A DNA stretch of 64,000 nucleotides. It comes from Deltaproteobacteria bacterium (GTDB taxonomy: Bacteria > UBA10199 > GCA-002796325 > JACPFF01). Location: contig JACQUX010000038.1 in assembly GCA_016210045.1 (NCBI GenBank), positions 165,139 to 229,138 of the forward strand, given 5' to 3'. Position numbers and translations under genes: made by a program. This document shows positions 33,669 through 58,389 of the stretch, piece after piece. The notes under the pieces are model-generated. The model was not told the origin of the DNA. It did not search any database and saw only the letters and a list, made by a program, of their open reading frames with translations. How positions within the stretch are numbered: the stretch's first letter is position 1; each line of letters begins with the position of its first letter.

Positions 33669-35276
33669 ATGGGGCCGCAAGCGCGCACACTCAGCATAAA
33701 ACACCGGATCTTGCTGTTCTCCGTGGTGGGACTCGGTATCTCGATCGCGATGGTCTTGATGTACAGCGTGGCCCATGTGCGCGAGGCGATCGACCGCAGG
33801 GTCACCGAACAACAGCGCGTGACGACGTTGGTGGCTCGGCATCTGGATCACGTGCTGCAATCCCAACTCACAACGTTGAGCGGGCTTTCGCTGTTGCCGG
33901 GCGTGGATCTGCACGACGCCGATTGGGAGCCGGAGCGGGTGGCAATTCACGGCATGGTCCGCACGTCACTTTTTCGGAAGGGGATTTTTTTGCAAGACGC
34001 GCAAGGCGCGGTCCCGTTGCGCGAGCCGATGGATGCCCTCGTGCCGGCGGTCGCGTGGTCGGCCGTATCGTTGCATAAACCGTTAGTGACGACGGTGACG
34101 GCCGACGGGGCGGGGGGCGCGCGGTGGATCCTCATGGTGTTGCCGTTGCGTGACGGGCGCGGGGGCAGCTTCGGTATCATCGGCGGCCTGATCGACCCGG
34201 CCCAGACGGGATGGGTCACGGCGCTGTTTCCGGCAGCGGCCGACCTTCCAGGCATGATCGAGGTGTTGGATCGCGATGGCGTCGCGGTGTGGCGCACGGG
34301 ATGGTCCGACACCACCGCTGTCACGACGGCGCATGATGATGTCTCCGCGACCGTCACGGAGGCCGCGCTGGCCGTGGCGCCGTGGCGAGTGTCTGTGCGG
34401 CAACCGCGAAGCGCGGCGTGGCGGTCTGTGATGTCGTTGCAAACGCGAGCCGTCTTGCTGGCCCTGTTGCTTTTGCTGGTCGGACTCGGGTTTGCGCTCG
34501 GCATGGCCCGCAGTGTGACGCGCCCGATCGCGGTGTTGCAACGGAGCGCGCAGCAGATCGCCGATGGGGATTTCGCGCGGCCGGTCCCGCTGCTGGGCGG
34601 CGACGAACTGGGCGTGCTCAGTCGCCACTTCGAAGTGATGCGGGTCCGGTTGTTTTCCTGGCATCGGGAACTGGAAGGAAAAATCCGGGAACGCACCCAG
34701 AAGATCATTACGGCACAAGAGGAAGAACGGAAGCGGATTGCACGGGAGCTGCACGACGACTTGGCGCAAAAGATGGCCGCGCTGCTGCTGAAACTCGAGT
34801 TGCAGCGGCCGGAGGAGGCGCGCGCATTGGCCATTCAAGTGCTCGACGACATGCAGCGGTTAATGCGCAATTTGCGGCCGTCGATCTTGGACGATGTCGG
34901 ACTCAATTCGGCGATCCGCTGGTTGGTGAAACACAATCTCACGGCGACGGGCGTTGCGACGCAATTGTTTCTCGATGAGTCGCATCCGCGCTTGGCGCCG
35001 GCGCTGGAAACGGCTGTCTTTCGCGTGGTGCAGGAAGCGGTGGCAAACGTCTGTCGTCATGCGGCGGCGCAGCGAGTCGTCATTTGCACGCAACAGCAAC
35101 ACGACGTACTCCACGTCACGATTGAAGATGACGGTTGCGGATTCGATCCCGCGGCGGCCGCGAGCTTCGGGATTGCAGGGATGCAAGAGCGGGTCGCGTT
35201 AGTCGACGGGCGGATGCAGATCGACGCGGTCCCGGGACGCGGCACGAAGATCCGCGTGGAGGTTCCACTGCGATGA
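33669..35276 (+). CDS. Sensor histidine kinase, NarL/HisKA_3 type, with two TM segments and HAMP-like linker
   Basis: Two hydrophobic segments flank a ~230 aa periplasmic region. H-box EERKRIARELHDDLAQ (HisKA_3). C-terminal HATPase with N box, EDDGCGF and G2 motifs. Confidence 0.85.
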   Translation: MGPQARTLSIKHRILLFSVVGLGISIAMVLMYSVAHVREAIDRRVTEQQRVTTLVARHLDHVLQSQLTTLSGLSLLPGVDLHDADWEPERVAIHGMVRTSLFRKGIFLQDAQGAVPLREPMDALVPAVAWSAVSLHKPLVTTVTADGAGGARWILMVLPLRDGRGGSFGIIGGLIDPAQTGWVTALFPAAADLPGMIEVLDRDGVAVWRTGWSDTTAVTTAHDDVSATVTEAALAVAPWRVSVRQPRSAAWRSVMSLQTRAVLLALLLLLVGLGFALGMARSVTRPIAVLQRSAQQIADGDFARPVPLLGGDELGVLSRHFEVMRVRLFSWHRELEGKIRERTQKIITAQEEERKRIARELHDDLAQKMAALLLKLELQRPEEARALAIQVLDDMQRLMRNLRPSILDDVGLNSAIRWLVKHNLTATGVATQLFLDESHPRLAPALETAVFRVVQEAVANVCRHAAAQRVVICTQQQHDVLHVTIEDDGCGFDPAAAASFGIAGMQERVALVDGRMQIDAVPGRGTKIRVEVPLR

Positions 35277-35950
35277 CACCCATCACGGCCACGATTAATG
35301 TGCTGATTGTCGATGATCACGCGATTTTGCGGGAGGGCATCCGCGCGTTGCTCGCGGCCGCGGAGGATATGGTGGTGGTCGGTGAGGCGGCCAATGGCCA
35401 AGAGGCGATCGAGCGGGTTGAGGAACGGCGGCCGGATGTCGTCTTGATGGATATCGCGATGCCGGGGCTCGGTGGGCTCGAAGCCACGCGGCAGGTCTGC
35501 GTGCGGAGTAAAGTCCTGATCCTCACGCAGTACGACAATCCGGAGTATATCTATCGCGCATTCAAGTCCGGTGCCTTGGGCTACATTCTGAAACGCGCCC
35601 TTGGGAGTGAACTGTTGACCGCGATTCGCGCGGTGCATCGCGGCCGCACTTATCTCGATCCGACGATCGCGTCCGACGTCATTGCCGGATATCTGCGTGA
35701 TCGGGGGGAGCACGTAGTGACCGATCCGTACGAACTCTTGACGGATCGCGAGCGCCAAGTGCTGAAACTCTTCGCGGAAGGTTGCACGGCGAAAGAAGTG
35801 GCGACGGTATTGAAAGTCAGCGTGAAGACAGCGGGGGCGCATCGTGACAACCTGATGCGCAAGTTAGGGCTCCATAATCGGGCCGCGCTGGTGCGGTTCG
35901 CGATCGAAAAAGGCGTGCTCTCGGGCATTAAAGAGGGAGAAATCGGGTGA
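35272..35950 (+). CDS. Response regulator, NarL/LuxR family (REC + HTH)
   Basis: REC domain (VLIVDDH...DVVLMDIAMPG...) plus C-terminal LuxR-type HTH (LTDRERQVLKLFAEGCTAKEVATVLKVSVKTAGAHRDNLMRKLG). ATGA overlap with the kinase gene. Confidence 0.9.
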
Positions 35951-36013
35951 GTGCCCAATGGTTAAAGTGTGGCCGACATCGTATCTTGGTGGCGAACCAA
36001 GAAGGAGGTACGT

Positions 36014-36208
36014 ATGAAAACCACATTGCAAGCCATCGGGATGCTCGTGACAGGGTCGCTGTTGGGCCTGCTGTACGTCATCTTTCTCCCGTTCATCGGC
36101 TTCACGATGGTGTTCTATCACGGCATCGTGTGGGCGGGGCGGGCGGCGCGACGGGCGGTGAGCCTCTGCGCAGACGCGGTGGAGAGAAGGGTACGGGACA
36201 AGGCATGA
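36014..36208 (+). CDS. Small (64 aa) membrane protein
   Basis: Strong Shine-Dalgarno (AAGGAGG, 6 nt spacer) before the ATG. One long hydrophobic helix (AIGMLVTGSLLGLLYVIFLPFIGFTMVFY). Stop overlaps the cytochrome c gene start. Confidence 0.5.
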   Translation: MKTTLQAIGMLVTGSLLGLLYVIFLPFIGFTMVFYHGIVWAGRAARRAVSLCADAVERRVRDKA

Positions 36209-37257
36209 AGCGCTGCTGGGTGGTCGTGGGGCTGTGCGGGCTGTTGTTGGGGCCGATAGTCGAGGCGCAGAGCCAAGAGAAAAATGCCGCGTGTCTGGCG
36301 TGCCATGACGATCCGACGTTGACCACGTCGTTGTCGAGCGGCGAGTCGCTGGTCTTGCACGTCGACCCGCAGCAGTTTGCCGGATCGGTGCATGGCGCGC
36401 AACTCTCCTGCACCGACTGCCATGATGTGGCGCTGGAGTCGCATCCGAGCGGGACTGTGGCATTTGCGACGCGGCGCCAATATGCGCTGGCGATGTATGA
36501 AAATTGTAAGCGGTGCCATTTTTCCAATTACACCAAATTGTTGGAAAGCGTGCATTACGACATGCTGGCGCAAGGGGCGCTGCACGCGCCGGTCTGCGTC
36601 GATTGCCACGGCGCCCATGATGTGGAACGGCCGGCCGCGGATCGCCAAGGCATCTCGCGGCGCTGTGCCACGTGCCATCATACAATTTATGCTACGTATG
36701 CCACGAGTGTGCATGGCGCGGCGCTGCTCGGCGACAACAACCAAGACGTTCCCGTATGCACCGATTGCCATACGGCCCACAATATTCAGGACCCGCGGTC
36801 CGCGCAATTTCATTTGGAGTCCCCGGAGGTCTGCGGACGGTGTCATGCCAACGCCCCGTTAATGGCCAAATACGGTCTTTCAACGGACGTCTTGCGCACG
36901 TATCTGAACGACTTTCATGGCGTCTCGGTGCAGTTGCATCGACAGGAAGGCGCCCCCGAATCGACCGCAGTGACGGCGGGGTGTATCGATTGTCACGGCG
37001 TTCATAATATCAGTCGAGCCGATGCGCCGAATTCAACCGTCATGAAAACCAATCTCGTCCAACAGTGCCGGCGCTGTCATCCGGAGGCCTCGGAGCACTT
37101 TCCCGATGCGTGGCTGTCGCATTACGAGCCGACGCCGACCAAGGCGCCGCTCGTCTACGCGGTGAAGCTCTTTTATCGGATCTTTATTCCGTTCATCATC
37201 GGGGGGCTGGCGCTCCATATCTTGCTCCATATCTGGCGAGCGATCGTGAATCGATAG
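36205..37257 (+). CDS. Multiheme c-type cytochrome with nine CXXCH motifs, signal peptide and C-terminal membrane anchor
   Basis: Nine haem-binding motifs: CLACH, CTDCH, CKRCH, CVDCH, CATCH, CTDCH, CGRCH, CIDCH, CRRCH. N-terminal signal peptide. C-terminal hydrophobic helix. Confidence 0.85.
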   Translation: MKRCWVVVGLCGLLLGPIVEAQSQEKNAACLACHDDPTLTTSLSSGESLVLHVDPQQFAGSVHGAQLSCTDCHDVALESHPSGTVAFATRRQYALAMYENCKRCHFSNYTKLLESVHYDMLAQGALHAPVCVDCHGAHDVERPAADRQGISRRCATCHHTIYATYATSVHGAALLGDNNQDVPVCTDCHTAHNIQDPRSAQFHLESPEVCGRCHANAPLMAKYGLSTDVLRTYLNDFHGVSVQLHRQEGAPESTAVTAGCIDCHGVHNISRADAPNSTVMKTNLVQQCRRCHPEASEHFPDAWLSHYEPTPTKAPLVYAVKLFYRIFIPFIIGGLALHILLHIWRAIVNR

Positions 37258-37266
37258 GAGGCGGTT

Positions 37267-37953
37267 GTGCGAAAGTGGATACGCTTTACCCGGCAAGATC
37301 GTCTGGAGCACTGGCTGGTCGCGCTCTGTTTTCTGTTGTTGGTGTGGACCGGGCTGCCACAAAAATACTACGGAGCCGAGGTGTCGCAGTGGATCATCGC
37401 CCACAGTGGCGGGATCGATTACACCCGATTACTACATCGCGTGGTCGGTTTTGTTTTTACTGCGCTGACCGTATGGCATGTCGGCTCGCGCGTCTGGGGC
37501 TTTCTGCGCAAAAAAATTGCCCCCTCGATGCTGCCGACGAAACGCGATTTTACCGACGCGATCACGAATCTACGCTATTACATGGGGCTCACGGACCACG
37601 AAGCGCGCTGCGATCGATTCGATTACAAACAGAAGTTCGAATATTGGGGCATGCTGATGGGGAGCGCCGTGATGATCGCCACCGGGCTGCTGCTCTATGC
37701 GCCGGCATGGTTCACGCAGTGGTTGCCCGGGGTGTTGATCCCCGCCGCTAAAGTGGCGCACAGCAATGAGGCAATGTTGGCACTGCTCGTAATCGTCGTT
37801 TGGCATTTGTACGGCGTGGTGTTCAGCCCCGAAGTCTTCCCGCTCGATACCAGTATGTTCACCGGCAACATTTCGGAAGAGCGGATGAAGAAAGAACATC
37901 CGTTGGAATACGAACGCCTGCAGCGCGAAGCGGAGACGCCGCCGCTCACTTGA
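37267..37953 (+). CDS. Membrane cytochrome b (Ni/Fe-hydrogenase / formate dehydrogenase gamma-subunit-type, PF01292-like)
   Basis: 228 aa, 4 TM helices with conserved His residues (..EHWLVA.., ..HRVVGF.., ..VWH..) in the arrangement of dihaem cytochrome b quinone-interacting subunits. Confidence 0.75.
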   Translation: MRKWIRFTRQDRLEHWLVALCFLLLVWTGLPQKYYGAEVSQWIIAHSGGIDYTRLLHRVVGFVFTALTVWHVGSRVWGFLRKKIAPSMLPTKRDFTDAITNLRYYMGLTDHEARCDRFDYKQKFEYWGMLMGSAVMIATGLLLYAPAWFTQWLPGVLIPAAKVAHSNEAMLALLVIVVWHLYGVVFSPEVFPLDTSMFTGNISEERMKKEHPLEYERLQREAETPPLT

Positions 37954-41491: not shown

Positions 41492-41540
41492 GCGCGGGGC
41501 TTACTAAGGTCCAGGGGCGGGGGTCAAGGGGTGAGAGGGA

Positions 41541-41590
41541 AATGCAAACGGCAAAATGCAAAAATCAAAAGGCAAAATGCCGGGACCACG
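41541..41590 (-). promoter_or_regulatory. Triple direct repeat (GCATTTTGCC-like) and sigma70-like promoter upstream of metH
   Basis: The coding strand is ggCATTTTGCCttttgattttTGCATTTTGCCgtttGCATTTccctctcacccc TTGACC cccgcccctggacct TAGTAA. It holds three T-rich direct repeats followed by a candidate -35/-10 ~45 nt before the metH ATG. Confidence 0.35.
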
Positions 41591-41618: not shown

Positions 41619-42056
41619 TCACAGCGGATTAATGACGTGCAGCTTCGGGATGCGGCGGAATTCCGTGTCGCGTGTGAAGATCGTGTCGATGCCGTGTTCG
41701 CGCATGATCGCCGCAATCCGGCAGTCGTGGACAAAACTTCCGCGCACGGCGCCGACGTCCTGCAAGATCGCTTGCAGCGTCGTCCAATATCCTTCGCCTT
41801 CGGTGAGGAGGCGCAATGTCGGGAGCGCCAACAATGACGTCACGTTGGCGCACGCCTCCTGAAGAGAGAAGAGGGGCGGCGCGCCGCCGAACGACTGGGT
41901 CACGAAGGCGAGATATTCGCCGATGTTGATCCATGTGATGGCGTATGAAGATCGGTCCTGTGCCACTTGATCCAGGAATGCACGGGCCGCCCGATGCTCC
42001 GGCGCGGCCTCACTCGAGGCGTAAATGAGGATGTTCGTGTCGATCAGGCCGTGCAC
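41619..42056 (-). CDS. vapC: Type II toxin-antitoxin system toxin, PIN domain (VapC family)
   Basis: The N-terminus MHGLIDTNILIY is the PIN-domain motif with acidic residues. 145 aa. Confidence 0.85.
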   Translation of the reverse strand: MHGLIDTNILIYASSEAAPEHRAARAFLDQVAQDRSSYAITWINIGEYLAFVTQSFGGAPPLFSLQEACANVTSLLALPTLRLLTEGEGYWTTLQAILQDVGAVRGSFVHDCRIAAIMREHGIDTIFTRDTEFRRIPKLHVINPL

Positions 42057-42307
42057 GGCAGTGGTCGCTCCAAATCAGGGAGATACGAAGTGCGATCCGC
42101 AGGGTCGATGCCGGCCGGAAGCGGACGTTTGCTCGTGTGCCACGTGGCCAGCCGGGCGGCCGCCGTATGCCGCCGCTCCGTGCGCGCCTCCAAGCCGCCG
42201 CGAATGAGTTCCACCACAAGGTGTTTCAATCGTCGGCCCTCGCTCACGCACAGCCGTTTGAGGGTGCGCAACAACTGGTCGTCCATTTCGATGGTGGTTC
42301 GATGCAT
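42044..42307 (-). CDS. vapB: Type II antitoxin (VapB-like)
   Basis: Small ORF (MHRTTIEMDDQLLRTLKR...) overlapping the vapC start, the typical arrangement. Confidence 0.7.
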   Translation of the reverse strand: MHRTTIEMDDQLLRTLKRLCVSEGRRLKHLVVELIRGGLEARTERRHTAAARLATWHTSKRPLPAGIDPADRTSYLPDLERPLPCTA

Positions 42308-42331
42308 CGTCAAAAATGATAAAATGTTCCA

Positions 42332-45300
42332 ATGAATGTGTCAATATGTGAAAACCTTCCGATTGCACCCCCGTTGGGGGCGTGGCACAATGGTCGCGTG
42401 ATCGAAAAGAGTCTGAACCTCGGCCATCTGGCCGAGGATTTTGCAAAGTTGTTGGTCGATGTCCCGGGCGAATCCCTGCCCGAAGACACGATTCAATTGG
42501 AGGAAGGAGAGCGACGCGAAGTCACGATCCTTTTCCTCGATATCGTCGGCTATACGCGGCTGGCGGAACAACTCGATCCGGAACAACTCAAGTTCGTCAT
42601 CTCGAACACGTTGCAAGTCTTTACCAATCAGATCAAACGCTGCGGCGGGACGGTCGAGAAATACGTCGGCGACGCGATCATGGCGTTGTTCGGCCGTTCG
42701 GAGGCGCACGAAGACGATTCGCGGCGCGCGGTGGCCGCCGCGCGCGCCATCTTGGAACGGCTCGAAGACATCAACAGCATCCTGGCGCAGAAGGGGATCA
42801 ACATCAGTTGTCGGATCGGCGTGAATCGCGGTTTGATCGTCACCGGACAGATGGGCGAACACGACACCGTGACCGGCGAAGCGATCAATATCGCGCAACG
42901 GTTGGAAGCCAACGCCCCATCGAACGGGATTCTCGTCTCCGACTCTGTTTTTGCGGAATGTCAGGCATATTACGATTGCCAAGCCTTGCCGCCGCTGCAT
43001 GTGAAAAATAAGACCGAGCCGGTGATCGTCTATTTAGTGAGCGACGAAAAGGCCGGCGGCGATCGCGTGATGATCCGGCATGAAGGGACGTTCGCGGGAC
43101 GGGAAGGGGAACGGTCGACGTTGCGGGCGGTGTGGGAGCGGGCCGCGCAAGGGCAAATGGGTTTGGTGCAGGTGGTCGGCGAGGCCGGGGTCGGCAAGAG
43201 CGCGCTGTTGCAAGCGGTGATGCAGGAAATGCGGTCCGAGACGTTGCGCGCGGCGACCGTGTATTTCAAGGCCGATTCGTTCGGATTGACGCCCTACCAT
43301 GTCCTTTCGGACTTGGTGCGGGAATATTTGGCCGGACACGTGACGAGTCTCGAGGACTTTATCGCGGCGATTCCGGACGCGGCGTTGCGCGACGGTCTCG
43401 GCGCGTATCGACTGTATCTCACAGATATTCTCGGATTGCCGCTCGGTGAAGACGATCGGCAGCGCTTATCGCGGATGGATCCGCGGGCGCGCCAAGCGGA
43501 AACCAATTTGGCGTTGAAACGCTTTATCGAAGCCGCCGTGGCGACCGAACGCGTCCGTGGTGCGCTGCCGCTGGTGATCGCGGTCGACAACTTTCAATGG
43601 GTCACGCATGCCTCGCGCGAGGCGCTCAGTCAAATCATCCAGACGTTGCCGTCCGAATCGGCGGTACTCTGGCTGATGGCGGGGCGCAGCGGCGATGCGG
43701 CGCCATGGTTGTCGGCGCAATTGGGGGCAACCGTGTTGCAACTCACGCCGTTGCCGTTCGAGGCCGCAGCGACACTGATTCGGGCGCGTTTCCCGGAACG
43801 CGTGTTAGGCGACGAGTTTTGTCGTCGTCTGTTTTTGCGCAGCGGCGGCAACGCGCTGTTTCTCAACGAACTGGTCGGCGAGTTGCGGCACGACAGCGAT
43901 CTGAGCGATGTCAGTTTCGCTGAGCGGCTGCCGTCGTCGATCAAGGCGTTAGTGTTGTCGCGTCTGGATCGACTGCCGCGTCCGGAAAAATTCGCGCTGC
44001 AACTCGGCGCGTTGGCGGGGCGGGAATTTTCCGAAGACCTGTTGCGCCATGTGCTGCGGCGCGCGATGTACGATTACGACGCCACGCAACTGATCGAACG
44101 GCTCTGTGCCGCGAATTTCCTGGCCCGCAGCGATCACGGCGTCACGATCGCGCAGCCGATGCTGACCGAAGTCGCGTACTCCACGATTTTGTACGCCAAT
44201 CGCCGCAAACTCCACGCGACCGTCGCGCAGTGGGTGGAAGACAATCGTCCCGACATCTCGATTTACGCCGCGTATTTGGCCGAACAGTGGGAGCGGGCCG
44301 AGGAATATGCGAAGGCGTATCATTACTATGCCGACGCCGGGCATTCCGCGCGGCGCCGCTATGCGCAACGCGAAGCGGCGACATTCCTTGAAAAGGCCCT
44401 CAAGTTCCGATCGGCGGCGAATGCGACTCCGGACCAATTGGCGGAGGTGTACGGACATTTGGTCGGCGCGTTCGAGGCGTTGGGCGATCAGGAAAAATGG
44501 CAATTGTATTTAAAAGAAGGGTTGCAATATGCTCCGCCCGAAAGCCGGATGCATTTTCGCTTTCGCTTGTCCGCGATCGAAGTGGAGCAGCGCTATGGCG
44601 ACCGCGCGAAGGCAAAAGAGCGATTGGCTGTGTTTCTTGCCGATGCCGCCGTGCAGGCCAATGCGGAAGTCCATTTGCGGGCGTTGCTGACGGCCAGTAA
44701 TTTTGCGAACGATCAAGGCGCCGACGACACCGCCTTCATCGGCACGGCATTGGCGTTGCGTCCCAAAATTCAAGACGTGGATCTCCAAGAGAAACTCGAT
44801 CATTGCGTGTTTAATCATTACAAAAACGCGGACGAGCTGACGCAAGCGGAACAATATCTCATGCGGCTGCTGGATGCGGCGCAGACGGATTTTCGGCGTC
44901 ATTTGTGCGATCTTTTTTATTGTTCGTTCGCGTGGGATCGTGGCGTTGATTTCGCGGCGATCATGACGCGGGCGTTGGCGGCGCAGAACTATTGGCGAGA
45001 AGTCGGCTGGGTGCGGGGCGTCGGCTGGGGCGCGTTTTATCGAGGCGCGGCGTTATGGCGGATGAGCCGTTACACGGAGGCGCGGCAGGTCTTCATTGAA
45101 GGCGTCAAGGAATTAGAACGCGCGCGGGACCAATTCATGTTGGGTAAATTGGAACTCGTGTTGGCGGCGATCCATCTATTCAGCGGCGATCAAGTGAATT
45201 ACCAAGTGCGGAAGAATCGGATTCTCACGCACGCGCAGCAGACGTCGGAATCGGAATGGCTCGCGCTGCGGCGCGAATTTGCGATGTTCGAAGGCCAATG

Positions 45301-45757
45301 CCTCGAGCCGCGCCATGCGCTGACGGGCGTGTATGAAGAACTCGTCGCGACCGGGTCGGCGCCGTTAGCGAAGGTGCAGATCGACGAATATACCGTCACA
45401 TTGGCGCTCGTGGCCGTGCAGTTAGGCCACACCGTGGAGGCGGAACAGTTAATCCACAAAGTGGGTCCGCATATTCGCGACAATGAAAAGACGTGGCTGT
45501 GGGGACTGTGCGGCCGGGTCGAGGCGTTGATCGCCGCGGCGCGGGAGGAGTGGGAACCGATGGAACGGTCGTTTGCGGAGAGCGTGCTGCGGTTTCAAAA
45601 ACTCGGCGCGCTGTACGACGCGTATCAGACCTATCGCGGTTGGTGGCGGGCGTTGAAGCAGCGAGGATTGGGAGAAACGCCGACCGGGGCAACGGTCCAG
45701 CAAGCGCTGGCGCAGCTGGCGGTTTCGGTGGGTGTGCCGGGGGAGGGACGGGGATGA
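42332..45757 (+). CDS. Adenylate/guanylate cyclase (class III) fused to STAND-type AAA ATPase and TPR/helical repeats
   Basis: Cyclase domain motifs (VTILFLDIVGYTRL..., ...KYVGDAIMALFG...). Walker A (VVGEAGVGKSALL). A long C-terminal helical repeat region. 1141 aa. Confidence 0.85.
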   Translation: MNVSICENLPIAPPLGAWHNGRVIEKSLNLGHLAEDFAKLLVDVPGESLPEDTIQLEEGERREVTILFLDIVGYTRLAEQLDPEQLKFVISNTLQVFTNQIKRCGGTVEKYVGDAIMALFGRSEAHEDDSRRAVAAARAILERLEDINSILAQKGINISCRIGVNRGLIVTGQMGEHDTVTGEAINIAQRLEANAPSNGILVSDSVFAECQAYYDCQALPPLHVKNKTEPVIVYLVSDEKAGGDRVMIRHEGTFAGREGERSTLRAVWERAAQGQMGLVQVVGEAGVGKSALLQAVMQEMRSETLRAATVYFKADSFGLTPYHVLSDLVREYLAGHVTSLEDFIAAIPDAALRDGLGAYRLYLTDILGLPLGEDDRQRLSRMDPRARQAETNLALKRFIEAAVATERVRGALPLVIAVDNFQWVTHASREALSQIIQTLPSESAVLWLMAGRSGDAAPWLSAQLGATVLQLTPLPFEAAATLIRARFPERVLGDEFCRRLFLRSGGNALFLNELVGELRHDSDLSDVSFAERLPSSIKALVLSRLDRLPRPEKFALQLGALAGREFSEDLLRHVLRRAMYDYDATQLIERLCAANFLARSDHGVTIAQPMLTEVAYSTILYANRRKLHATVAQWVEDNRPDISIYAAYLAEQWERAEEYAKAYHYYADAGHSARRRYAQREAATFLEKALKFRSAANATPDQLAEVYGHLVGAFEALGDQEKWQLYLKEGLQYAPPESRMHFRFRLSAIEVEQRYGDRAKAKERLAVFLADAAVQANAEVHLRALLTASNFANDQGADDTAFIGTALALRPKIQDVDLQEKLDHCVFNHYKNADELTQAEQYLMRLLDAAQTDFRRHLCDLFYCSFAWDRGVDFAAIMTRALAAQNYWREVGWVRGVGWGAFYRGAALWRMSRYTEARQVFIEGVKELERARDQFMLGKLELVLAAIHLFSGDQVNYQVRKNRILTHAQQTSESEWLALRREFAMFEGQCLEPRHALTGVYEELVATGSAPLAKVQIDEYTVTLALVAVQLGHTVEAEQLIHKVGPHIRDNEKTWLWGLCGRVEALIAAAREEWEPMERSFAESVLRFQKLGALYDAYQTYRGWWRALKQRGLGETPTGATVQQALAQLAVSVGVPGEGRG

Positions 45758-46431
45758 CCGACATGCACGACGTGATGATCACGCTTTTTTCGGGACTCGA
45801 CGCGGCCGCATTGGCCGGCGTGCGCCAGCGGGCGGAGCCGCGCGACTTCGACGGTAACGTGGCGATCATTCGCGAAGGGGAGCCGGGCGATGCGCTGTAT
45901 ATTATTGTGCAAGGGACAGTGGCCATCATTAAACATGCGGCGAGCGGACGCGGCGACTTGCTGGGCATTTTGGGGCGCGGTGAATACGTCGGCGAGATGG
46001 CGCTGCTGACCGTTGCGCCACGCTCGGCCTCGGTCATCACGTTGGAGCCGGTCAAGACGTTGGCGATCAGTCACGCCCATTTCGGGCAATTCGTCGAACA
46101 ATTCCCCGGCGCCGGGGCGCAGATTTTCCGGACCTTTGCAACGACGCTGAGCGCCCGGTTGCAGCGCGTGACGGAAAAATTGGGGGAACTCTTGACCCCG
46201 ACCGCCGCGCGGGCCTCGCAGGCTGCGTCCGTGGACGCGAGTATCAGCCAGCCCGATGCCGAACTCTCGACGCCGGCTGCGGTGCTGAAAGGCACTGTGG
46301 ATCTGTTGTCCCAAACGGCCTTGACGCCGGAACGGCGGCAGGAATTCTTGCGCACGATGACGATTCAAGCGGAACGCTTGGTCGGTCTGTTGCGCACGGC
46401 GAACGGATTGAGTCATGAACAGACGCAGTAA
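45754..46431 (+). CDS. Cyclic-nucleotide-binding domain protein (CAP/CRP-type cNMP-binding fold) with C-terminal helical extension
   Basis: Contains ...GEPGDALYIIVQGTVAI...GEYVGEMALL...PRSASVITL..., the conserved Gly/Glu/Arg-Ser-Ala phosphate-binding cassette of cNMP-binding domains. ATGA overlap with the cyclase gene. Confidence 0.8.
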   Translation: MTDMHDVMITLFSGLDAAALAGVRQRAEPRDFDGNVAIIREGEPGDALYIIVQGTVAIIKHAASGRGDLLGILGRGEYVGEMALLTVAPRSASVITLEPVKTLAISHAHFGQFVEQFPGAGAQIFRTFATTLSARLQRVTEKLGELLTPTAARASQAASVDASISQPDAELSTPAAVLKGTVDLLSQTALTPERRQEFLRTMTIQAERLVGLLRTANGLSHEQTQ

Positions 46432-46849
46432 CTGCGGCGTGATCATCCTGTTGGCGCTAGCGGCGTGCAGTGCCGTGGGCTGCCGCGATTCGCGCTACTA
46501 CGGAACGGTCGAAGATTTGGTCTTCGATTCGGTGCCGGAAAAACACGACTTGATGACACAAACCATTAGTGGATTTGTGACTTGCCCGACCTGTCCGCCG
46601 GATACCTCCAGTATGTTGATCGAAGTGCGTGGTCCGCAATTATTGACCGCAGAGCCGTTAGTGAGTGAACCCTTCGCGCGGGTCGGGGCCTACGAAGTCA
46701 CCGTGAAGGTGCGGCCCGGCGAACCTCTCGTCGTCGAAGCGACCATCTTTACCAGCGGCGGGCTCCGCAACGTCTCACAAGAAGTCATGGCCATCGCCGA
46801 CGCCCCCGATGGGACCGCGAGTATGACGGTGAATTTGCGCGTGGAATGA
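46415..46849 (+). CDS. Hypothetical lipoprotein
   Basis: Signal peptide with lipobox (LALAACSAVGC). 144 aa. No family recognised. Confidence 0.5.
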   Translation: MNRRSNCGVIILLALAACSAVGCRDSRYYGTVEDLVFDSVPEKHDLMTQTISGFVTCPTCPPDTSSMLIEVRGPQLLTAEPLVSEPFARVGAYEVTVKVRPGEPLVVEATIFTSGGLRNVSQEVMAIADAPDGTASMTVNLRVE

Positions 46850-46850
46850 G

Positions 46851-46960
46851 TGGCTGGTAAGCGGCGCGCATAGCACACGTTGTTCCCAGCCACCAGTCAC
46901 GAGTCACCAGCCACCGCTTTTCCCAGTCACCAGTCACTAGCCACCAGTCACGCATCTAAA
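46851..46960. repeat. CCAGYCA heptamer tandem array (locus 3 of 4)
   Basis: The array cccagccaccagtcacgagtcaccagccaccgcttttcccagtcaccagtcactagccaccagtcacg lies between convergent genes, preceded by an inverted block gtggctggt. Confidence 0.6.
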
Positions 46961-49148
46961 ACTCCGTCACTTCCACCGGTGTAGTTTGCGGGGGCAGTTG
47001 ATAGCCGGGGTTGATGCCGATGCCGAGTTGTCCCGAGCTTGGATCGCCCCACGCCCAGACAGTGCCGTCGTTCTTGAGCGCCAAACTGTGGCGCATTCCC
47101 GCCGCGACGGCGATCACGCGGTCCAAATTCACGGTCGTGGGGTCGCAAGAGGTCCGGTCGATCGTCGTGCCGTCGCCCAGTTGCCCATTGTCGTTCTCGC
47201 CCCACGCGAAGACGCGGCCGCTCGCATCGATCGCCAAGAAATGGTTGCTATTGGCGCCTAAGCCGGCATCCACGATATTCGACAATGCAGTGACCTGGCG
47301 TGGGCCGGTGTTCCATTCGTTCTCCACGTCGCAATAGCTGCCGCCCCAGACCCAAAGTGTGCCGTCGCGTTTGACGGCCAACGAGACGCCGCTGCCTGCG
47401 GCAATGTCGACGACATCGGAGATCCCGGGGATTTGGGTGGGAGTTGGGACGTAGCGGTCGTCGGGAGACGAATTCGAATCATACGGCGTAATCTCGCCAT
47501 TCACGGACCATCCCCACCCCCACACCGTGCCGTCGCTGCGCAGTGCCAGATTATGAAACGATCCCGCTGCGAGTGTGACGACGTTTGACAGCGAGCCGAT
47601 GAGTACCGGGGTCAAGCGGTCGGTCGTCGTGCCATCCCCCAATTGTCCGGTGCCGTTATCGCCCCAGGCCCAGATCGTGCCGTCGTTGCGCAGCGCAATG
47701 TTGTGACTGTCGCCCGCGCCGACAGTAATGATATTGCTGAGCGACGAAACTTGGATCGGCGTCGGGCTATAGGTCGTGGTCCCGTTGCCGAGTTGCCCCG
47801 AACGATTACTCCCCCACGTCCAGACCGTGCCGTCGCGTGCCCGCGCCACGGCGTGTTGCGGCCCGGCGCTTAGCTGAGTCGCTGCGATGTTCACCACGGC
47901 TGGCGTGAAGACGTTGGTCTGTCCTTCGCCCGTGCCGAGCGTATATTCCACGCCATCATCCACCGCCCACCGGATATAATTGTTGCCCCATCCGTACACG
48001 GTCCCATCGACATCCAACGTGTACGAAGTCACGTTGCCAGCAAAGACGCCGACGAATCCGGTCGACGCGGCAGTGGTCGATGCCAACGTGACGTCATCGT
48101 CCGCCGCACGACCTGGGACGGCGAGCAGCTCTTGGGCGGTGCATCCGCTGGCCGCGCTACCAGCCAGCGTAACGCAGCTTTGCGACGCGCTTTCTCCGTC
48201 GACCGTGTAGGTTGTGTAAAGTTTGCCCGAGGCCGGGGTCCAAGTGGCCGTGAATTCGACATCCGCTTCGGCGCCGAAGTCCGCGTGCGTCCCGAGCACT
48301 GCGGCCTGTACCACGGTGTCGCTGGCCGCGGTCTTGTCGCGGGCGATCGACTGTGACGAGCCCGCCGTTTCGGTCAAGTACGCGTGCGACGTCTCCACGT
48401 CGAACCCGGTGAGATCGGGGAGCGACGTCGACCAATACAGCTCGAGTTGTCGGCTAGTCGTCGCTTGCTGATCCCAGACGCCGCTCAGCACGTAGGTTTC
48501 CACCCCGCGGATCTGCGCGTCTTCGTTGGTGCCGGTGTTGTGCGTCCCGAAGAGGCGGAAACAGCCGGCCCCTTGTCCGGTGTCGTCTTCGGCCGGCAGC
48601 GCGGTGAATTTCCCGACGAAGACGCGGCGATTGTTCACATACAGCCGGACACACATCGGCAGTTCGCCCGCATTGCCCGAACAACTGGCGGAGCAATCGA
48701 CGGTCGAGATCTGTTGATTGGACAGCGCGGGAAACGTGAAGGACGAAAAGTCGAGTCGGTAACTGCTGCCACCTGCCGTCGTGCCGGTGGTCGCGGTCGT
48801 CGCGGTGTTATTTTCGACTTCGATGCCGCTGAGCAACAGCAGCAGCGCGTCTAATCGATCGCTCGCATCGTCGACAAATGAGAGCGCCCGTTCCGGCGCC
48901 CCGCTGCCAGAGAGTGCCTTCGCCGACTTGGCCGCGCTGACACTGCTGCTGCTCGAGCTCACCGTGCCGACGCCGACGCCTAAACTATTAGGGAACGAGA
49001 AGTTGCCGGTGGCGGACGGCAGTTCAATCGGAATCGGCGTGCTGGTTCCTCCGCCGGTCGGGACCCCGGCGCCGCCACAGGCGGCCACGCCGATACACAG
49101 CATCAAGACAGAGATACACCGCCAACACACCTGGGACGGTTTTCGCAT
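46956..49148 (-). CDS. Secreted/lipoprotein RCC1-repeat (regulator of chromosome condensation-like beta-propeller) protein
   Basis: The C-terminal half is seven consecutive ~50 aa repeats of the form ...HxxALxxDGTVWxWGxNxxGQLGxG.... The N-terminus is a signal/lipobox (MLCIGVAACGGAG), then a Thr/Ser-rich region. Confidence 0.8.
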   Translation of the reverse strand: MRKPSQVCWRCISVLMLCIGVAACGGAGVPTGGGTSTPIPIELPSATGNFSFPNSLGVGVGTVSSSSSSVSAAKSAKALSGSGAPERALSFVDDASDRLDALLLLLSGIEVENNTATTATTGTTAGGSSYRLDFSSFTFPALSNQQISTVDCSASCSGNAGELPMCVRLYVNNRRVFVGKFTALPAEDDTGQGAGCFRLFGTHNTGTNEDAQIRGVETYVLSGVWDQQATTSRQLELYWSTSLPDLTGFDVETSHAYLTETAGSSQSIARDKTAASDTVVQAAVLGTHADFGAEADVEFTATWTPASGKLYTTYTVDGESASQSCVTLAGSAASGCTAQELLAVPGRAADDDVTLASTTAASTGFVGVFAGNVTSYTLDVDGTVYGWGNNYIRWAVDDGVEYTLGTGEGQTNVFTPAVVNIAATQLSAGPQHAVARARDGTVWTWGSNRSGQLGNGTTTYSPTPIQVSSLSNIITVGAGDSHNIALRNDGTIWAWGDNGTGQLGDGTTTDRLTPVLIGSLSNVVTLAAGSFHNLALRSDGTVWGWGWSVNGEITPYDSNSSPDDRYVPTPTQIPGISDVVDIAAGSGVSLAVKRDGTLWVWGGSYCDVENEWNTGPRQVTALSNIVDAGLGANSNHFLAIDASGRVFAWGENDNGQLGDGTTIDRTSCDPTTVNLDRVIAVAAGMRHSLALKNDGTVWAWGDPSSGQLGIGINPGYQLPPQTTPVEVTEF

Positions 49149-49290
49149 ATCGTCATGGAAGAGCAAAGGACATGCCGCAGCCCCTCGATGCCAACGCGTC
49201 AATATCGCAACGCTTTTATCCGGCGTATCCGTCCGCCCGGGTAGGCGTTCACCACAAAATCCTCGAAATGAATGAGAATGCACTCATACG

Positions 49291-49380
49291 GCAGTGACTG
49301 GTGGCTAGTGGCTGGGAAATGGGACTCACTTGCTCCGTTCCCCCGCCACCAGTCACACCTTTCCCAGCCACCGCTTTACA
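49291..49380. repeat. CCAGYCA heptamer array with inverted arms (locus 4 of 4), in a divergent promoter region
   Basis: The sequence is cagtgactggtggctagtggctgg...ccgccaccagtcacacctttcccagccaccg. Confidence 0.6.
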
Positions 49381-54646: not shown

Positions 54647-56515
54647 TCATCCCGGGAACCCGCTACACCACGCCCGCCACATGCCGCGATATGCCGCTTC
54701 CAAGTCGCGTGTGAAGGCCGCGGCGTCGCAGAGCGAAGATGCTCGCATCCGGTCACGCAATTGCGCACGCCAGGTTGCGAGCTGGTCCGGATCGTTGGCG
54801 AGCCGCACGGCCGTTGTGACATATCCGGCACGATCATTCGCGATGCATTCAGATAAACCGACGCGCGTAAGCAGACTCGCGCTGACACGTGCGGCATGCC
54901 GATCGCCCCAGGACGCGATGACGGGCACGCCCATCCAGAGTGCCTCGCACGTGGTCGTCGTGCCGTTGTACGGAAATGGATCGAGGGCGAGGTCGAGTTC
55001 CCGATAATACGAAAGCTGATCGCGTCGGTCGGTACTCCACCCGACCAGCTCCAGACGCGCAGCCGCGATGCCGTGCGCCGCGAAGCGCTGCGCCACGAAT
55101 GCGCGCGTCGCCGCGTCGCCGAGCGCCTTGCTCTTGAGCAGCAGACGCGCGGTCGGCACGCCGTGCAGGATCGCGGCCCACGTCTGCAATACGTCGTCGT
55201 TGAGCTTGGCCGGATTGTTGAGCGAACCGAACACGACGTGGCCGCGCTGTCGCGCCGGTAGCGGTCCCACAGCCGGCGCATCGGCGGGCGGGAGATAACA
55301 GTTGAAGCCGTGCGGGAGTCGCCACAATCGCTCGCTGTGAACTGGCTCGGCGCCGTCCGGATCGGTGAGCGCGTCGACCAGGCGATAATCGATCGTCGCG
55401 AGGCCGGTCGTGTTCGGATAGCCGAGATACGTGACTTGGAGCGGCGCCGGCTGTTGTGCGAACACGTCGAGTCGTTCGCCTTCGGTGTGGCCGGCCAAGT
55501 CCACTAGGATGTCGATCCGGTCCGCGACGATCTGTGCCGCGATCTCGTTGGTGGCGCGGCGATGAATCATCCGCCAGAAATCACCGTAACTTTGCAGCCG
55601 CGTGGTCGTGGCGTCGGGTTGGGCCACGTTGGCGTAACAAAACAGTTCAAACACGGCACGATCGTGTTGTTGCAGAAACGGCTCGATGAAATAGACGCAC
55701 GCGTGCCGCCGAAAATCGGGCGAGACATATCCGATACGCAGCCGTCGATTCGGGTCGCGATCGTGGTCCGTACCGACGATTGTTCGCACCGGCTGCCGCT
55801 GCCCCCACGCGCGGTGTTGCGCAGCGACGGAGGCAGTGCTCAACGACGGATGGTAATTCAAGTTCAGTAAATGGTTGTGCCATGCCTCACGATAATCCGG
55901 TTTCAATGCGGTCGCCTGTTCCAACGCGGCCAACGCCTCCACAATCCGTCCTTGGGCGGTGAAAATGGCACTCCGATTGTTCCAAACCTCCGCCAGGATC
56001 GCGGGGTCTTGCGCCGCGCGGTCGAAATATTCCAACGCGCGGCTGAAATTTCCCCACTGCGTATGAATCACGCCTAAGTTGAGCGCGGCGGCGCTTGGAT
56101 TGGCGTCGAGCTCTAAGACGCGCTGATAGCAAGCCGCCGCGGCCTCGAGGTCTCCGTGGTGTTCATGCCAACTGCCTAAGTATTGGTGGGCGCACGCGGA
56201 CGGCGGATTGCAGTCGGCTGCGCGGGCAAGGCATGCCCCGGCCTCGTCGCGTTGTCCCGTTTGCAGATAGACGATGCCTAAGTTAAGCCACGCATCGCCG
56301 TGCTGCGGCTCCCGTTCCACGACCTGTTGGAGATGGGTAATCGCCTCGGCCGATGCTCCGTGCTGTGCACACGCGGTGCCCAGCAGAATGCGGACTTCCA
56401 CAGACTCCGGCAGTGCCGCTAAGACCGTGCGATAGCCGTCGATCGCTGCTTTGAGACGACCTTGTTGTTGATCGGCGATGGCGTGATCGAGCAACGTGGC
56501 GAGTTCCGGCGTCAC
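54647..56515 (-). CDS. TPR-repeat glycosyltransferase, O-GlcNAc-transferase-like (GT41 family)
   Basis: N-terminal TPR repeats. The C-terminal catalytic region (...LRIGYVSPDFRRHACVYF...PLQVTYLGYPNTTGLATIDYRLVDALTDP...) matches SPINDLY/OGT-type transferases. The start is probably the GTG overlapping the upstream gene's stop (TTGTGA); the ORF-track ATG at 56677 would overlap the upstream CDS by 165 nt. Confidence 0.7.
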   Translation of the reverse strand: MTPELATLLDHAIADQQQGRLKAAIDGYRTVLAALPESVEVRILLGTACAQHGASAEAITHLQQVVEREPQHGDAWLNLGIVYLQTGQRDEAGACLARAADCNPPSACAHQYLGSWHEHHGDLEAAAACYQRVLELDANPSAAALNLGVIHTQWGNFSRALEYFDRAAQDPAILAEVWNNRSAIFTAQGRIVEALAALEQATALKPDYREAWHNHLLNLNYHPSLSTASVAAQHRAWGQRQPVRTIVGTDHDRDPNRRLRIGYVSPDFRRHACVYFIEPFLQQHDRAVFELFCYANVAQPDATTTRLQSYGDFWRMIHRRATNEIAAQIVADRIDILVDLAGHTEGERLDVFAQQPAPLQVTYLGYPNTTGLATIDYRLVDALTDPDGAEPVHSERLWRLPHGFNCYLPPADAPAVGPLPARQRGHVVFGSLNNPAKLNDDVLQTWAAILHGVPTARLLLKSKALGDAATRAFVAQRFAAHGIAAARLELVGWSTDRRDQLSYYRELDLALDPFPYNGTTTTCEALWMGVPVIASWGDRHAARVSASLLTRVGLSECIANDRAGYVTTAVRLANDPDQLATWRAQLRDRMRASSLCDAAAFTRDLEAAYRGMWRAWCSGFPG

Positions 56516-58389
56516 AAATGTGTTCCGCGCAACGCCGCGACGCGTTCTTGTAAGTCTGCGGCGCGAACTTGCGTCGGCGGAAGCGGCTCGGCGATTACCA
56601 GCCGAATGTGGGAACGCAGTCGTTGTAGAAATCGCCATACGGTGCGGCCCGGCATCCGGCTGAACGCGCTGCCCCACAACCCTTGCAGCGCCATCGGAAT
56701 GACCGGCGCCGGTGTGCGTTCGATGATTCGCTCAATCCCCGGTTTGAACGGATTCATCGCGCCGTCGTGCGTCAGTTTCCCTTCGGGGAAAATGCAGACG
56801 ACGTCGCCTTCCTGCAGCGCCTGCGCGATCGCGTCGTATGCGGATCCCAACACATCCGGATTTTCCCGCTTCGACGCGATCGGGATCGCGCGGCCGCGTT
56901 TGGCGAAGTAGCTGATGATCGGATGCGCGGCGATGTAATGATCCATGATAAATCGGGCAGGGCGACGGCATGCCGCGGCGACGATCAGGCCGTCGACGAA
57001 GCTGACGTGGTTGCAGACCAACACCACCGGCCCGTGTTCCGGGATCCGCTCCGCGCCTTCGACCTCGAGCCGATAGAGGGAGTGCATCAGGATCCAGATC
57101 ATGAAGCGGTAGAGGAATTCCGGGATGATCCCGTAAATGTAACTCGCGACGGCGGCGTTCAAGATTGCGAGCACGAGGAACATCTGGGGAATGGAGCAAT
57201 GGAGTTGTGTGAGGAGCATCGTCAGCAGCGCGGAGCTGACGACGAACACGGCGTTAATGATGTTATTCGCAGCGATAATCCGCGAGCGCCGCTCCGGTGC
57301 GGACCGTTGTTGAATCAACGCTTGCAGTGGCACGACGAAGAATCCGGAGAAGATGCTGATGCCGACGAGGTCGATGAGAATTCGCCAACTCCCGACACTG
57401 TGCAGAAATGCGGCGACGCCCAATGGTCCGGACGCATTGCCGTGAAACTGCGGACTGGCCCACGCGAGATCGAGTGTGAAGAGTGTCATGCCGATCGAAC
57501 CGAACGGCACTAAGCCCAATTCCACGCGCTTGCCCGAGAGCCGTTCGCAGCCGAGTGATCCGATCCCGATCCCGACACAAAACATCACGAGACACAGCGT
57601 GACCACCGACTCGCGACTGCCCAAGACGTCTTTACCGAAACTCGGCAGCAGCGTGAGCAACATCGCGCCGAAGAACCAGAACCACGAGATACCGAGAATG
57701 GAGAGAAAGATCGTGCGATGGCGGCGCGCGTCGCGGACCAAGGCATACGTCAGGCGCAGCGGATTCCACGTAGCGACGGTCGTGTGATCGAGTGGCGGGG
57801 CGGTTGGGATGCCGCGGGAAAATCCCCAACCGAGCATGGCGACGCCGATGGCCGTGAGCGGGACAATATGCGCGCCGTTCGGCAGCGCCATCAGGACGCC
57901 GCCCAAGATCGTGCCGAGCAAGATCGCGAGGAACGTCCCCATTTCGATCATACCGTTCCCGCCGATCAATTCGTCCGCATGCAGGTGTTGCGGCAGTAAA
58001 CTGAACTTGATCGGGCCGAAGACCGTGGAGTGGAGCCCCATCAATGTGAGTACGACCAACAATCCCGCCAGGCTGTGGTAGTGAAAGGCGATGAGCGCGA
58101 GTCCCATAATGGCGATTTCTGCCAGCTTGACGAAACGCACCAAGCGCGATTTTTCGCAGCGATCCGCCAATTGCCCGGCCAGCGCGGAAAAAAGGAAGAA
58201 CGGCAGAATGAACAACCCTTGGCAGAGGGCCACCAGCGACGTGCGTTGCGCCTCGCTCGTCTCCGCGCTGTGGAAGACGATCAGGATCATCAGCGCGTTC
58301 TTGAATAAGTTGTCGTTGAGTGCGCCAAAAAATTGCGTCCCGAACAACGGCCAAAAGCGCGTGCTGCGCAGCAACAGGAATTGATTCAT
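56512..58389 (-). CDS. Lysophospholipid transporter (MFS, LplT-like) fused to acyltransferase (PlsC/Aas-like)
   Basis: N-terminal 12-TM MFS region. The C-terminal acyltransferase region carries the NHVSFVDG (HxxxxD) and FPEGKLTHDG (FPEG) motifs. Confidence 0.8.
   Translation of the reverse strand: MNQFLLLRSTRFWPLFGTQFFGALNDNLFKNALMILIVFHSAETSEAQRTSLVALCQGLFILPFFLFSALAGQLADRCEKSRLVRFVKLAEIAIMGLALIAFHYHSLAGLLVVLTLMGLHSTVFGPIKFSLLPQHLHADELIGGNGMIEMGTFLAILLGTILGGVLMALPNGAHIVPLTAIGVAMLGWGFSRGIPTAPPLDHTTVATWNPLRLTYALVRDARRHRTIFLSILGISWFWFFGAMLLTLLPSFGKDVLGSRESVVTLCLVMFCVGIGIGSLGCERLSGKRVELGLVPFGSIGMTLFTLDLAWASPQFHGNASGPLGVAAFLHSVGSWRILIDLVGISIFSGFFVVPLQALIQQRSAPERRSRIIAANNIINAVFVVSSALLTMLLTQLHCSIPQMFLVLAILNAAVASYIYGIIPEFLYRFMIWILMHSLYRLEVEGAERIPEHGPVVLVCNHVSFVDGLIVAAACRRPARFIMDHYIAAHPIISYFAKRGRAIPIASKRENPDVLGSAYDAIAQALQEGDVVCIFPEGKLTHDGAMNPFKPGIERIIERTPAPVIPMALQGLWGSAFSRMPGRTVWRFLQRLRSHIRLVIAEPLPPTQVRAADLQERVAALRGTHL

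Follow-up and report, generated by a model that had tools for sequence, protein, structure and literature searches.

A conserved three-gene cassette pairs a predicted STAND-linked adenylyl cyclase with a cNMP-binding protein that ends in a histidine-less DHp-like hairpin

Three overlapping genes, ORF1, ORF2, and ORF3 (open reading frames 1–3), lie within a 64,000-nucleotide (nt) stretch of DNA from an uncultured deltaproteobacterium (assembly GCA_016210045.1, contig JACQUX010000038.1, positions 165,139–229,138 of the forward strand). We refer to this whole stretch as the window, and coordinates below are window-based. ORF1 encodes a class III nucleotidyl cyclase joined to a STAND-type NTPase, ORF2 a cyclic nucleotide monophosphate (cNMP)-binding protein whose C-terminus resembles the dimerization and histidine phosphotransfer (DHp) hairpin of histidine kinases, and ORF3 a predicted lipoprotein. 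We propose, with a confidence that we place at about even, that the three genes form a dedicated cyclic AMP (cAMP) operon, and that the output of ORF2 is cAMP-dependent, phosphorylation-independent protein binding through its DHp hairpin. The operon appears to be an uncommon form of bacterial cAMP signaling, though not a revolutionary one.

Results

A conserved unit of three genes under purifying selection

An earlier note on this DNA, made from the sequence alone, had drawn attention to an ORF at 42332..45757 (1141 amino acids, aa) that ends in ATGA overlapping the start of a second ORF at 45754..46431 (225 aa), and both frames and their overlap are present as described. Two features of that outline have changed. 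Although an ORF of 1141 aa exists, ORF1 probably starts at GTG 42398 rather than at ATG 42332, which shortens the protein to 1119 aa. This start is likelier because the N-termini of all orthologues coincide with GTG 42398 (V-x-E-K-S-L-N-L-G), and because a sigma-70-like promoter for a divergent antitoxin gene (11/12 match, TTGACA-17-TATCAT, 42344-42316) spans ATG 42332; residue numbers given for ORF1 are those of the 1141-aa form. Similarly, the cyclase/receptor pair stands, but the unit does not stop at two genes: ORF3, whose first 17 nt are shared with ORF2, is a third conserved member that had been overlooked. The features of the unit are collected in Table 1.

Table 1. Features of the three-gene unit, in window coordinates
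Feature	Position	Strand	Details or basis
ORF1, cyclase-STAND-helical protein	42398..45757	+	1119 aa from GTG 42398; longest ORF from ATG 42332, 1141 aa
Class III nucleotidyl cyclase domain of ORF1	42512..43036	+	Residues 61-235; D70, K110, D114, T179, N186, R190; PF00211
AAA_16 (STAND-type) NTPase of ORF1	43091..43672	+	Walker A GEAGVGKS (283-290), degenerate Walker B AVDN (417-420); PF13191
Family-specific C-terminal domain of ORF1, assumed alpha-helical	43829..45754	+	~640 aa, including a tail of ~60-75 aa absent in the sister clade
ATGA stop/start overlap of ORF1 and ORF2	45754..45757	+	Read from the sequence
ORF2, 225-aa cNMP-binding protein with His-less DHp-like C-terminus	45754..46431	+	Pfam, alignments, dN/dS
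cNMP-binding beta-barrel of ORF2	45844..46101	+	Intact phosphate-binding cassette (G80, E81, R90, S91, A92); PF00027
C-helix/signaling helix of ORF2	46105..46194	+	Residues 118-147; followed by a variable Pro-rich linker (148-170) holding the former H-box position A169
Predicted DHp (HisKA)-derived helical hairpin of ORF2	46264..46419	+	Residues 171-222, motif TPAAVLKG..DLL; family profile, alignments, dN/dS
ORF3, predicted exported lipoprotein with beta-sandwich fold	46415..46849	+	144 aa; invariant CxxC (C57, C60)

For measurements of selection, the reference was the closest relative (L001), a locus from a Logan assembly whose genes are 84-92% identical to those of the window. The ratio of nonsynonymous to synonymous substitution rates (dN/dS) is 0.054 for ORF1, 0.097 for ORF2, and 0.181 for ORF3 at dS of ~1. 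All three are therefore under purifying selection and are real genes rather than chance ORFs.

Cyclase, receptor, and lipoprotein genes occur together in 11/11 loci that could be assessed, in the order of a cyclase-AAA_16 gene (1117-1172 aa), a gene for a cyclic-nucleotide-binding protein with a DHp-like hairpin (CNB-DHp), and a lipoprotein gene (134-158 aa). Loci were taken from the contigs that encode short forms of the ORF2 family, namely L001, L005, L006, L007 (also L008 and L009), L010, L011, and L012. In L005, L006, and L011 the contig ends within the upstream gene, and the remaining fragment is 44-53% identical to the ORF1 C-terminal domain, and L013, a fragment with too little upstream sequence, was left out of the ORF1 linkage count. 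Two further loci, L097 and L098, were found independently in metagenome contigs with the ORF1 C-terminal profile alone, and here too a CNB-DHp gene and a small ORF follow downstream. Across the 11 loci, the receptor is 30-45% identical to ORF2, except in L001, where identity is 84%. The stop and start codons of the first two genes overlap by 4 nt in 6/9 loci, and the gene that follows ORF2 overlaps its stop in most loci. The earlier note had made its pairing of cyclase and receptor depend on conservation in related genomes; the two genes are adjacent in every assessable locus, amid flanks that vary from RCC1 and radical SAM genes to MMPL and aminotransferase genes or a GT4 glycosyltransferase gene.

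The family is narrow. It comprises about a dozen clusters at 90% identity, all from uncultured groundwater and soil metagenome-assembled genomes labeled Deltaproteobacteria by NCBI, and a search of IMG/VR contigs with the ORF1 C-terminal profile found no relative. In a scan of genome contigs with the ORF2 family alignment, which settled on the generic phosphate-binding-cassette motif, the matches listed were unrelated cNMP-binding proteins and do not bear on co-occurrence. Both partner genes are missing from 2/2 loci of a sister clade, whose proteins are ~1000 aa long and 35% identical to ORF1. In one of these (L095, 9013-11496), the cyclase-AAA_16 gene is followed by genes for a PTS_EIIA_2-domain protein and an amino-acid permease rather than by a CNB-DHp gene.

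ORF2 joins a cNMP-binding domain to a DHp-like hairpin

Residues 31-116 of ORF2 match cNMP_binding (PF00027) at 78.3 bits against a Pfam cut-off of 27.5, and the motifs GEMALL (residue 80) and PRSASV (residue 89), from which a canonical CAP-type cassette had originally been read, are both located within this domain. AlphaFold2 (AF2) models the domain with a per-residue confidence score (pLDDT) of 80-90. When the whole ORF2 model was submitted to Foldseek, only CRP-type proteins were matched, with CRP/GlxR at the top; these matches are driven by the cNMP-binding domain, and the C-terminus superposes in them with a root-mean-square deviation of ~11 Å, which is meaningless. Taken together with the cyclase encoded next to it, the domain leads us to infer that ORF2 is the receptor of the cAMP made by ORF1. 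Two orthologues, P0154 (L007, 8001-8633) and P0169 (L012, 3553-4194), carry Tyr in place of the phosphate-binding Arg (EPYSATV and MPYSATV, respectively), while their partner cyclases retain every catalytic residue.

The C-terminal part of ORF2 had been described as helical and distinct from the helix-turn-helix (HTH) of CRP proteins. This holds: Pfam finds no HTH family match (HTH_Crp_2 or Crp) in ORF2, and identity as a CRP-like transcription factor is ruled out by the lack of an HTH. It had also been left without a family assignment, and here a profile search was informative. In the single ORF2 sequence, residues 170-215 match HisKA at 19.4 bits, below the Pfam cut-off of 26.9. A profile built from the last 70 residues of the short forms, by contrast, matches the DHp domain of HK853 (4JAS, E=4.5e-6) and GacS (7N0E, E=1e-4); matches of the same profile to DivL (4Q20, E=0.07) and RetS are weak and not significant. 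Over its whole length, ORF2 can also be aligned with the first 220 residues of CNB-HisKA-HATPase_c proteins, which are 380-397 aa long. In this alignment, D-A169-E-L-S-T-P of ORF2 occupies the position of S-H-E-L-R-T-P in the kinases, so that the phospho-acceptor His is replaced by Ala. ORF2 then ends ~10 residues past DHp helix 2, with no HATPase_c domain detected by Pfam and an unrelated lipoprotein gene next in line. On these alignments, the C-terminus is best described as a DHp/HisKA-derived hairpin, and ORF2 as the remnant of a cNMP-binding pseudo-kinase. Having neither a phospho-acceptor His nor an ATPase domain, ORF2 can neither autophosphorylate nor pass on phosphate, and signaling by phosphotransfer is closed to it.

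This architecture is not peculiar to the window. HMMER, run exhaustively against 1.8 billion representatives, recovered short forms of 207-225 aa from at least nine lineages, which share the architecture and end point of ORF2 at 33-45% identity. His is missing in 8/9 of them, and the Thr/Ser of the L-x-T-P motif is retained in 8/9. The CNB-DHp protein of L097 has no Thr-Pro at all. Selection is strongest on the very segment in question: within ORF2, dN/dS is lowest in the hairpin (0.027 for residues 171-218), followed by the C-helix (0.046), the cNMP-binding domain (0.097), and the linker with the former H-box (0.139). The contrast between hairpin and adjoining linker argues that the hairpin is functional and is not decaying. 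AF2 predicts a helix at 118-147, disorder at 142-173 (pLDDT <50), and a hairpin at 174-222 with pLDDT of 50-70, a modest confidence that would be expected for a monomer model of a dimerization module.

Related full-length proteins bear on how this form may have arisen. The middle gene of L014 (P0137) encodes a full-length CNB-HisKA-HATPase_c protein of 386 aa, which matches HisKA at 35.8 bits and HATPase_c at 66.5 bits and in which the His is replaced by Lys. This His-less, full-length form is consistent with a stepwise history in which the His was lost first and the ATPase domain later. Two other full-length proteins of this architecture, P0191 (SRELRTP) and P0218 (AREVAAP), have Arg at the phospho-acceptor position.

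ORF1 retains a complete adenylyl cyclase signature

The class III cyclase domain attributed to ORF1 by the earlier note is borne out by a match to Guanylate_cyc (PF00211) over residues 61-235 (69.1 bits, Pfam cut-off 21.9) and by its closest matches in the PDB, the adenylyl cyclases CyaC of Spirulina (1WC1) and CyaB of P. aeruginosa (3R5G), at E ~1e-21. Aligned with CyaC, the metal-binding Asp pair D70 (in FLDIVG) and D114 (in EKYVGD) corresponds to D1017 and D1061, and the transition-state residues N186 and R190 (in NIAQR) to N1146 and R1150. Loss of such residues, and with it an inactive domain, had been raised as a possibility; the Asp pair, the Lys/Thr pair, and the Asn/Arg pair are all there, and the six catalytic residues are invariant in 15 relatives (11 orthologue clusters and 4 sister-clade clusters). 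In class III cyclases, adenine is specified by Lys with Asp or Thr, and guanine by Glu with Cys or Ser. Since the K110/T179 pair of ORF1 is that of CyaC and CyaB, ATP is the predicted substrate and cAMP the predicted product. In the PDB comparison, CyaC reaches 80 bits, but the cytidylate cyclase 8JSF no more than 28 bits. Across orthologues, the cyclase domain is 76-83% identical, compared with 39-53% for the NTPase and C-terminal domains.

The Walker-A STAND-type NTPase previously read from ORF1 is likewise present, matching AAA_16 (PF13191) at residues 254-447 (77.3 bits, cut-off 32.6), with weaker Pfam matches to NACHT, nSTAND1, and NB-ARC. Its Walker A motif (GEAGVGKS, residues 283-290) is normal. 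In Walker B (AVDN, window ~43580-43591), the second acidic residue is Asn, so that only one of the two acidic residues is present. The motif reads D-N or D-H throughout the ORF1 family and the sister clade, with T-H in P0284, whereas mainstream relatives with a cyclase, an AAA_16 domain, and tetratricopeptide repeats (TPRs) have E-D. This pattern suggests that the STAND module binds nucleotide and hydrolyzes it poorly.

One label is not supported. The long C-terminus of ORF1 had been taken for TPR-like helical repeats, but no significant TPR match was found in its 641 aa, the sole match being TPR_8 at E=0.013 and 16 bits (cut-off 25.7), and a seven-sequence profile of the domain has no significant match in the PDB. 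As a positive control, a TPR protein encoded at 54647-56677 of the window matches 18 TPR-type families. Relatives of ORF1 over its full length are confined to the 11+4 clusters; other homologues align over cyclase and NTPase alone and carry real TPRs. The last ~60-75 residues (FAESV..FQ..GA.YD.Y.TYR.WW.AL, window ~45530-45754) are found in the ORF1 family and not in the sister clade. The C-terminal domain is 92% identical to its L001 counterpart, like the rest of the protein, and a hydrophobicity scan of ORF1 found no transmembrane-like segment.

ORF3 is a predicted exported lipoprotein

ORF3 begins with a hydrophobic segment (Kyte-Doolittle score 2.65) followed by an invariant Cys23, which is preceded in most orthologues by [LVA][AGVS][GAS]; from this signature we predict an exported lipoprotein. 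The two cysteines of its CxxC motif are invariant as well. AF2 predicts a beta-sandwich with pLDDT of 80 overall and >90 over residues 47-138. The top Foldseek match is the pilotin AspS (5WEC, E=3.6e-5, TM-scores 0.47/0.58), and the other nearest folds are the pilotin ExsB and CBM20/transthyretin-like sandwiches, all with modest scores. Metagenome scans seeded from ORF3 returned no match. A frameshifted kinase with its catalytic and ATP-binding (CA) domain in ORF3 is ruled out, as ORF3 has no HATPase_c match and encodes a conserved beta-sandwich lipoprotein.

Genomic surroundings

Upstream of the cassette, a PIN toxin gene (41619-42056) and a ribbon-helix-helix (RHH) antitoxin gene (42075-42313) lie on the minus strand between metH and ORF1. 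The pair is absent at this position in L001, which indicates an insertion or deletion. Toxin-antitoxin modules also occur within a few kilobases of the cassette in L006 (6199-6776), L007 (3807-4509), and L014 (1234-2113 and 9782-10066), their types being ParE/PhD, NTP_transf_2/NTase_sub_bind, ParE/CopG, and BrnT; such proximity in unrelated loci could reflect either a high load of these modules in the genomes or a location in variable regions. The AT-rich spacer between the start of metH and the 3' end of the PIN gene contains an AAATGCA heptamer/21-nt tandem repeat (41540-41580). Upstream of metH are genes for a HAMP-HisKA_3 sensor kinase (33669-35276), a multihaem c-type cytochrome (35947-37257), and a cytochrome b561 (37267-37953), with no evident link to the cassette.

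Downstream, a 775-aa protein of RCC1 repeats (beta-propeller) is encoded on the minus strand (46956-49283) and converges on the cassette; the gene is conserved at this position in L001 (6705-8840), whereas loci farther removed do not have it there. Where the 3' ends of ORF3 and the RCC1 gene face each other, the intergenic DNA holds an array of CCAG(T/C)CA heptamers. Such arrays form a dispersed short tandem repeat in intergenic positions of the window (46886-46951, 10681-10710, 21668-21738, and 49300-49315), and the pattern CCAGTCACNAGCCACC, allowing ≤2 mismatches, has 12 occurrences in the window, compared with an expectation of 0.06. Rfam has no match in the window.

Discussion

We propose that a cue acts on the STAND module and the family-specific helical sensor domain of ORF1, a soluble protein. 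By analogy with other STAND proteins, oligomerization of this module would let the cyclase domains meet and pair as active dimers. ORF2 would read the resulting cAMP with its CRP/PKA-type domain, which is linked by the conserved C-helix and a flexible linker to the DHp hairpin, and binding of cAMP may then alter what the hairpin binds. As phosphotransfer is closed to ORF2, its output would be protein-protein binding. DHp domains bind receiver domains, other DHps, and CA domains, and for this reason we favor a partner whose gene lies elsewhere, either a response regulator or a true kinase bound at its DHp, in the manner of the pseudo-kinases DivL and RetS; ORF1 itself is our second choice.

Several observations weigh against this proposal. 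No response regulator or kinase partner is encoded in or near any cassette. The description of the locus as a self-contained second-messenger module is accordingly supported in its pairing of cyclase and receptor but overstated in its self-containment, since the cassette holds no output partner. The Arg-to-Tyr replacements in P0154 and P0169 raise the prospect that cNMP binding may not be family-wide. The Pro-rich, predicted disordered linker would break the continuous-helix coupling of true kinases, and the hairpin itself is modeled at pLDDT 50-70. Given the Asn in Walker B, the STAND switch may bind nucleotide without hydrolysis, or may not cycle at all. Finally, the ORF3 lipoprotein has no place in the mechanism.

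The competing explanation that fares best, although we consider it rather improbable, makes ORF2 a feedback subunit of the cyclase, which would dock through its DHp hairpin on the ORF1 C-terminal domain and tune cyclase activity by the level of cAMP, leaving the true outputs to other cAMP receptors. The 4-nt overlap in 6/9 loci is what would be expected of subunits made in a fixed ratio, and the cassette encodes no other cytoplasmic partner. The ~60-75-aa tail of ORF1 accompanies ORF2 and is absent in the sister clade, which lacks ORF2; moreover, fusions of cNMP-binding and cyclase domains exist, and the PADLOC model PDLC00734 matches both ORF2 and ORF1. However, the correlation of tail and ORF2 amounts to a single clade split, and DHp domains are known to bind receivers, CA domains, and other DHps, not helical-repeat sensors.

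We regard as unlikely a second alternative, in which ORF2 would be a stand-alone, cAMP-gated phosphatase or a sequestering protein for a phosphorylated response regulator, acting through the Thr of H-E-x-x-T. The DHp domain of EnvZ in isolation, and EnvZ mutants that lack the His, offer a precedent. In true kinases, the receiver-docking residues are carried by DHp helix 1 past the H-box and by helix 2; ORF2 keeps this part of the DHp, and 8/9 short forms keep the Thr/Ser of L-x-T-P despite the loss of His. Against it, the H-box region is variable, Pro-rich, and predicted to be non-helical, its Glu is not conserved, and Thr-Pro, which is lacking in L097, may merely cap a helix.

A role in anti-phage defense, with a Pycsar-like or Avs-like scheme in which the STAND module senses a phage protein, the cyclase signals, and the cNMP-binding protein acts as effector, is in our view very unlikely. 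It draws on matches of ORF1 to PADLOC models of PycC (best 77 bits) and of ORF2 to the cNMP-binding part of PycTIR effectors, and on the toxin-antitoxin modules that adjoin the cassette in the window, L006, L007, and L014. Yet these matches cover generic cyclase and cNMP domains only (ORF2 residues 22-142), and the PycC score is similar to that obtained with Pfam. ORF2 has no TIR, transmembrane, or other toxic module and no hydrophobic segment (maximum Kyte-Doolittle score 1.25), and the K110/T179 pair, like the closest structures in the PDB, is of adenylyl type, with the cytidylate cyclase 8JSF far behind CyaC. The sensor domain is 92% identical to that of L001 and ORF1 as a whole has dN/dS of 0.054, with no sign of the diversification typical of immune sensors. 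Synteny is kept between L001 and the window, including the RCC1 and radical SAM genes, the absence of the toxin-antitoxin pair from L001 points to an independent insertion, and no viral relative was found in IMG/VR contigs.

Least credible of all is the idea that ORF2 is a truncated histidine-kinase gene with a functionless C-terminus and a merely historical pairing, as its resemblance to the first 225 residues of a ~390-aa protein, present in full form in L014, might suggest; short forms with the same end point in at least nine lineages at 33-45% identity, the lowest dN/dS of ORF2 in its hairpin, and a downstream gene that overlaps the ORF2 stop in most loci, so that the frames are maintained, speak against it, and we reject a pseudogene remnant because selection is purifying and the short form is conserved across distant relatives.

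The cassette can be set beside several known systems. Like the cyclase-AAA_16-TPR adenylyl cyclases, ORF1 starts with a class III cyclase, continues with an AAA_16 P-loop NTPase, and ends in a long helical region, and hundreds of these proteins align with it over cyclase and NTPase at 26-33% identity. They are annotated as 'class 3 adenylate cyclase/predicted ATPase/TPR', and the mycobacterial members Rv0386, Rv1358, and Rv2488c add a LuxR HTH. The ORF1 family differs in having no detectable TPR or HTH, in a C-terminal domain confined to ~15 clusters, in a Walker B of D-N/H rather than E-D, and in being always followed by CNB-DHp and lipoprotein genes. It also has the canonical Lys/Thr pair, whereas Rv0386 reportedly uses a Gln/Asn pair. 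Citing Castro et al. 2005, PMC3466318 presents Rv0386 as an experimentally active cyclase of this general type.

For ORF2, the nearest relatives in architecture are cNMP-binding histidine kinases (P0164, P0219, P0049, and P0068, all uncharacterized), which have the same cNMP-binding domain, C-helix, and DHp hairpin; P0164 and P0219 are His-containing CNB-HisKA-HATPase_c forms. ORF2 departs from them in having Ala169 at the phospho-acceptor position and no CA/ATPase domain. Its likeness to DivL of Caulobacter and RetS of Pseudomonas, kinase-derived proteins in which the DHp acts by protein contact, would be one of function. DivL lacks the His and is a pseudo-kinase that reads a response regulator (PMC4211667, PMC9430884). 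Unlike ORF2, which consists of a cNMP-binding domain and a bare hairpin, DivL and RetS keep the CA domain, have PAS or periplasmic sensors, and receive no cNMP input. CRP/FNR receptors share with ORF2 the cNMP-binding beta-barrel and the long C-helix, and CRP of M. tuberculosis and GlxR are the best structural matches, but ORF2 has no winged-helix or HTH DNA-binding domain. In Pycsar systems, too, the cyclase gene precedes that of a cNMP-binding protein, and their PycC and PycTIR models are matched in PADLOC; against this, ORF2 has no toxic effector domain, the cyclase has specificity residues of purine type, and the cassette is conserved, syntenic, and slow-evolving, with an additional lipoprotein gene.

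Neither CNB-DHp proteins nor this operon were found described in the literature open to our searches. To our knowledge, nearly every bacterial cAMP receptor whose output is known is a transcription factor, an enzyme, or a channel. It is conceivable, though we hold this view only tentatively and with some doubt, that CNB-DHp proteins constitute an undescribed class of second-messenger receptor, in which a kinase has been reduced to a docking hairpin. In that case cAMP would directly control docking on a response regulator or kinase, cAMP signaling would be wired into two-component circuitry without phosphotransfer, and the receptor, together with a hydrolysis-deficient STAND cyclase and a dedicated lipoprotein, would make up a new envelope-linked module. 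As the family is narrow, its general importance would be limited unless the principle proves widespread. With three genes and soluble proteins, the cassette offers a clean, small system in which to study the control of a cyclase by a STAND switch. If the proposed cAMP-dependent docking by ORF2 is correct, the docking surfaces of kinases would be reusable as second-messenger-gated adaptors.

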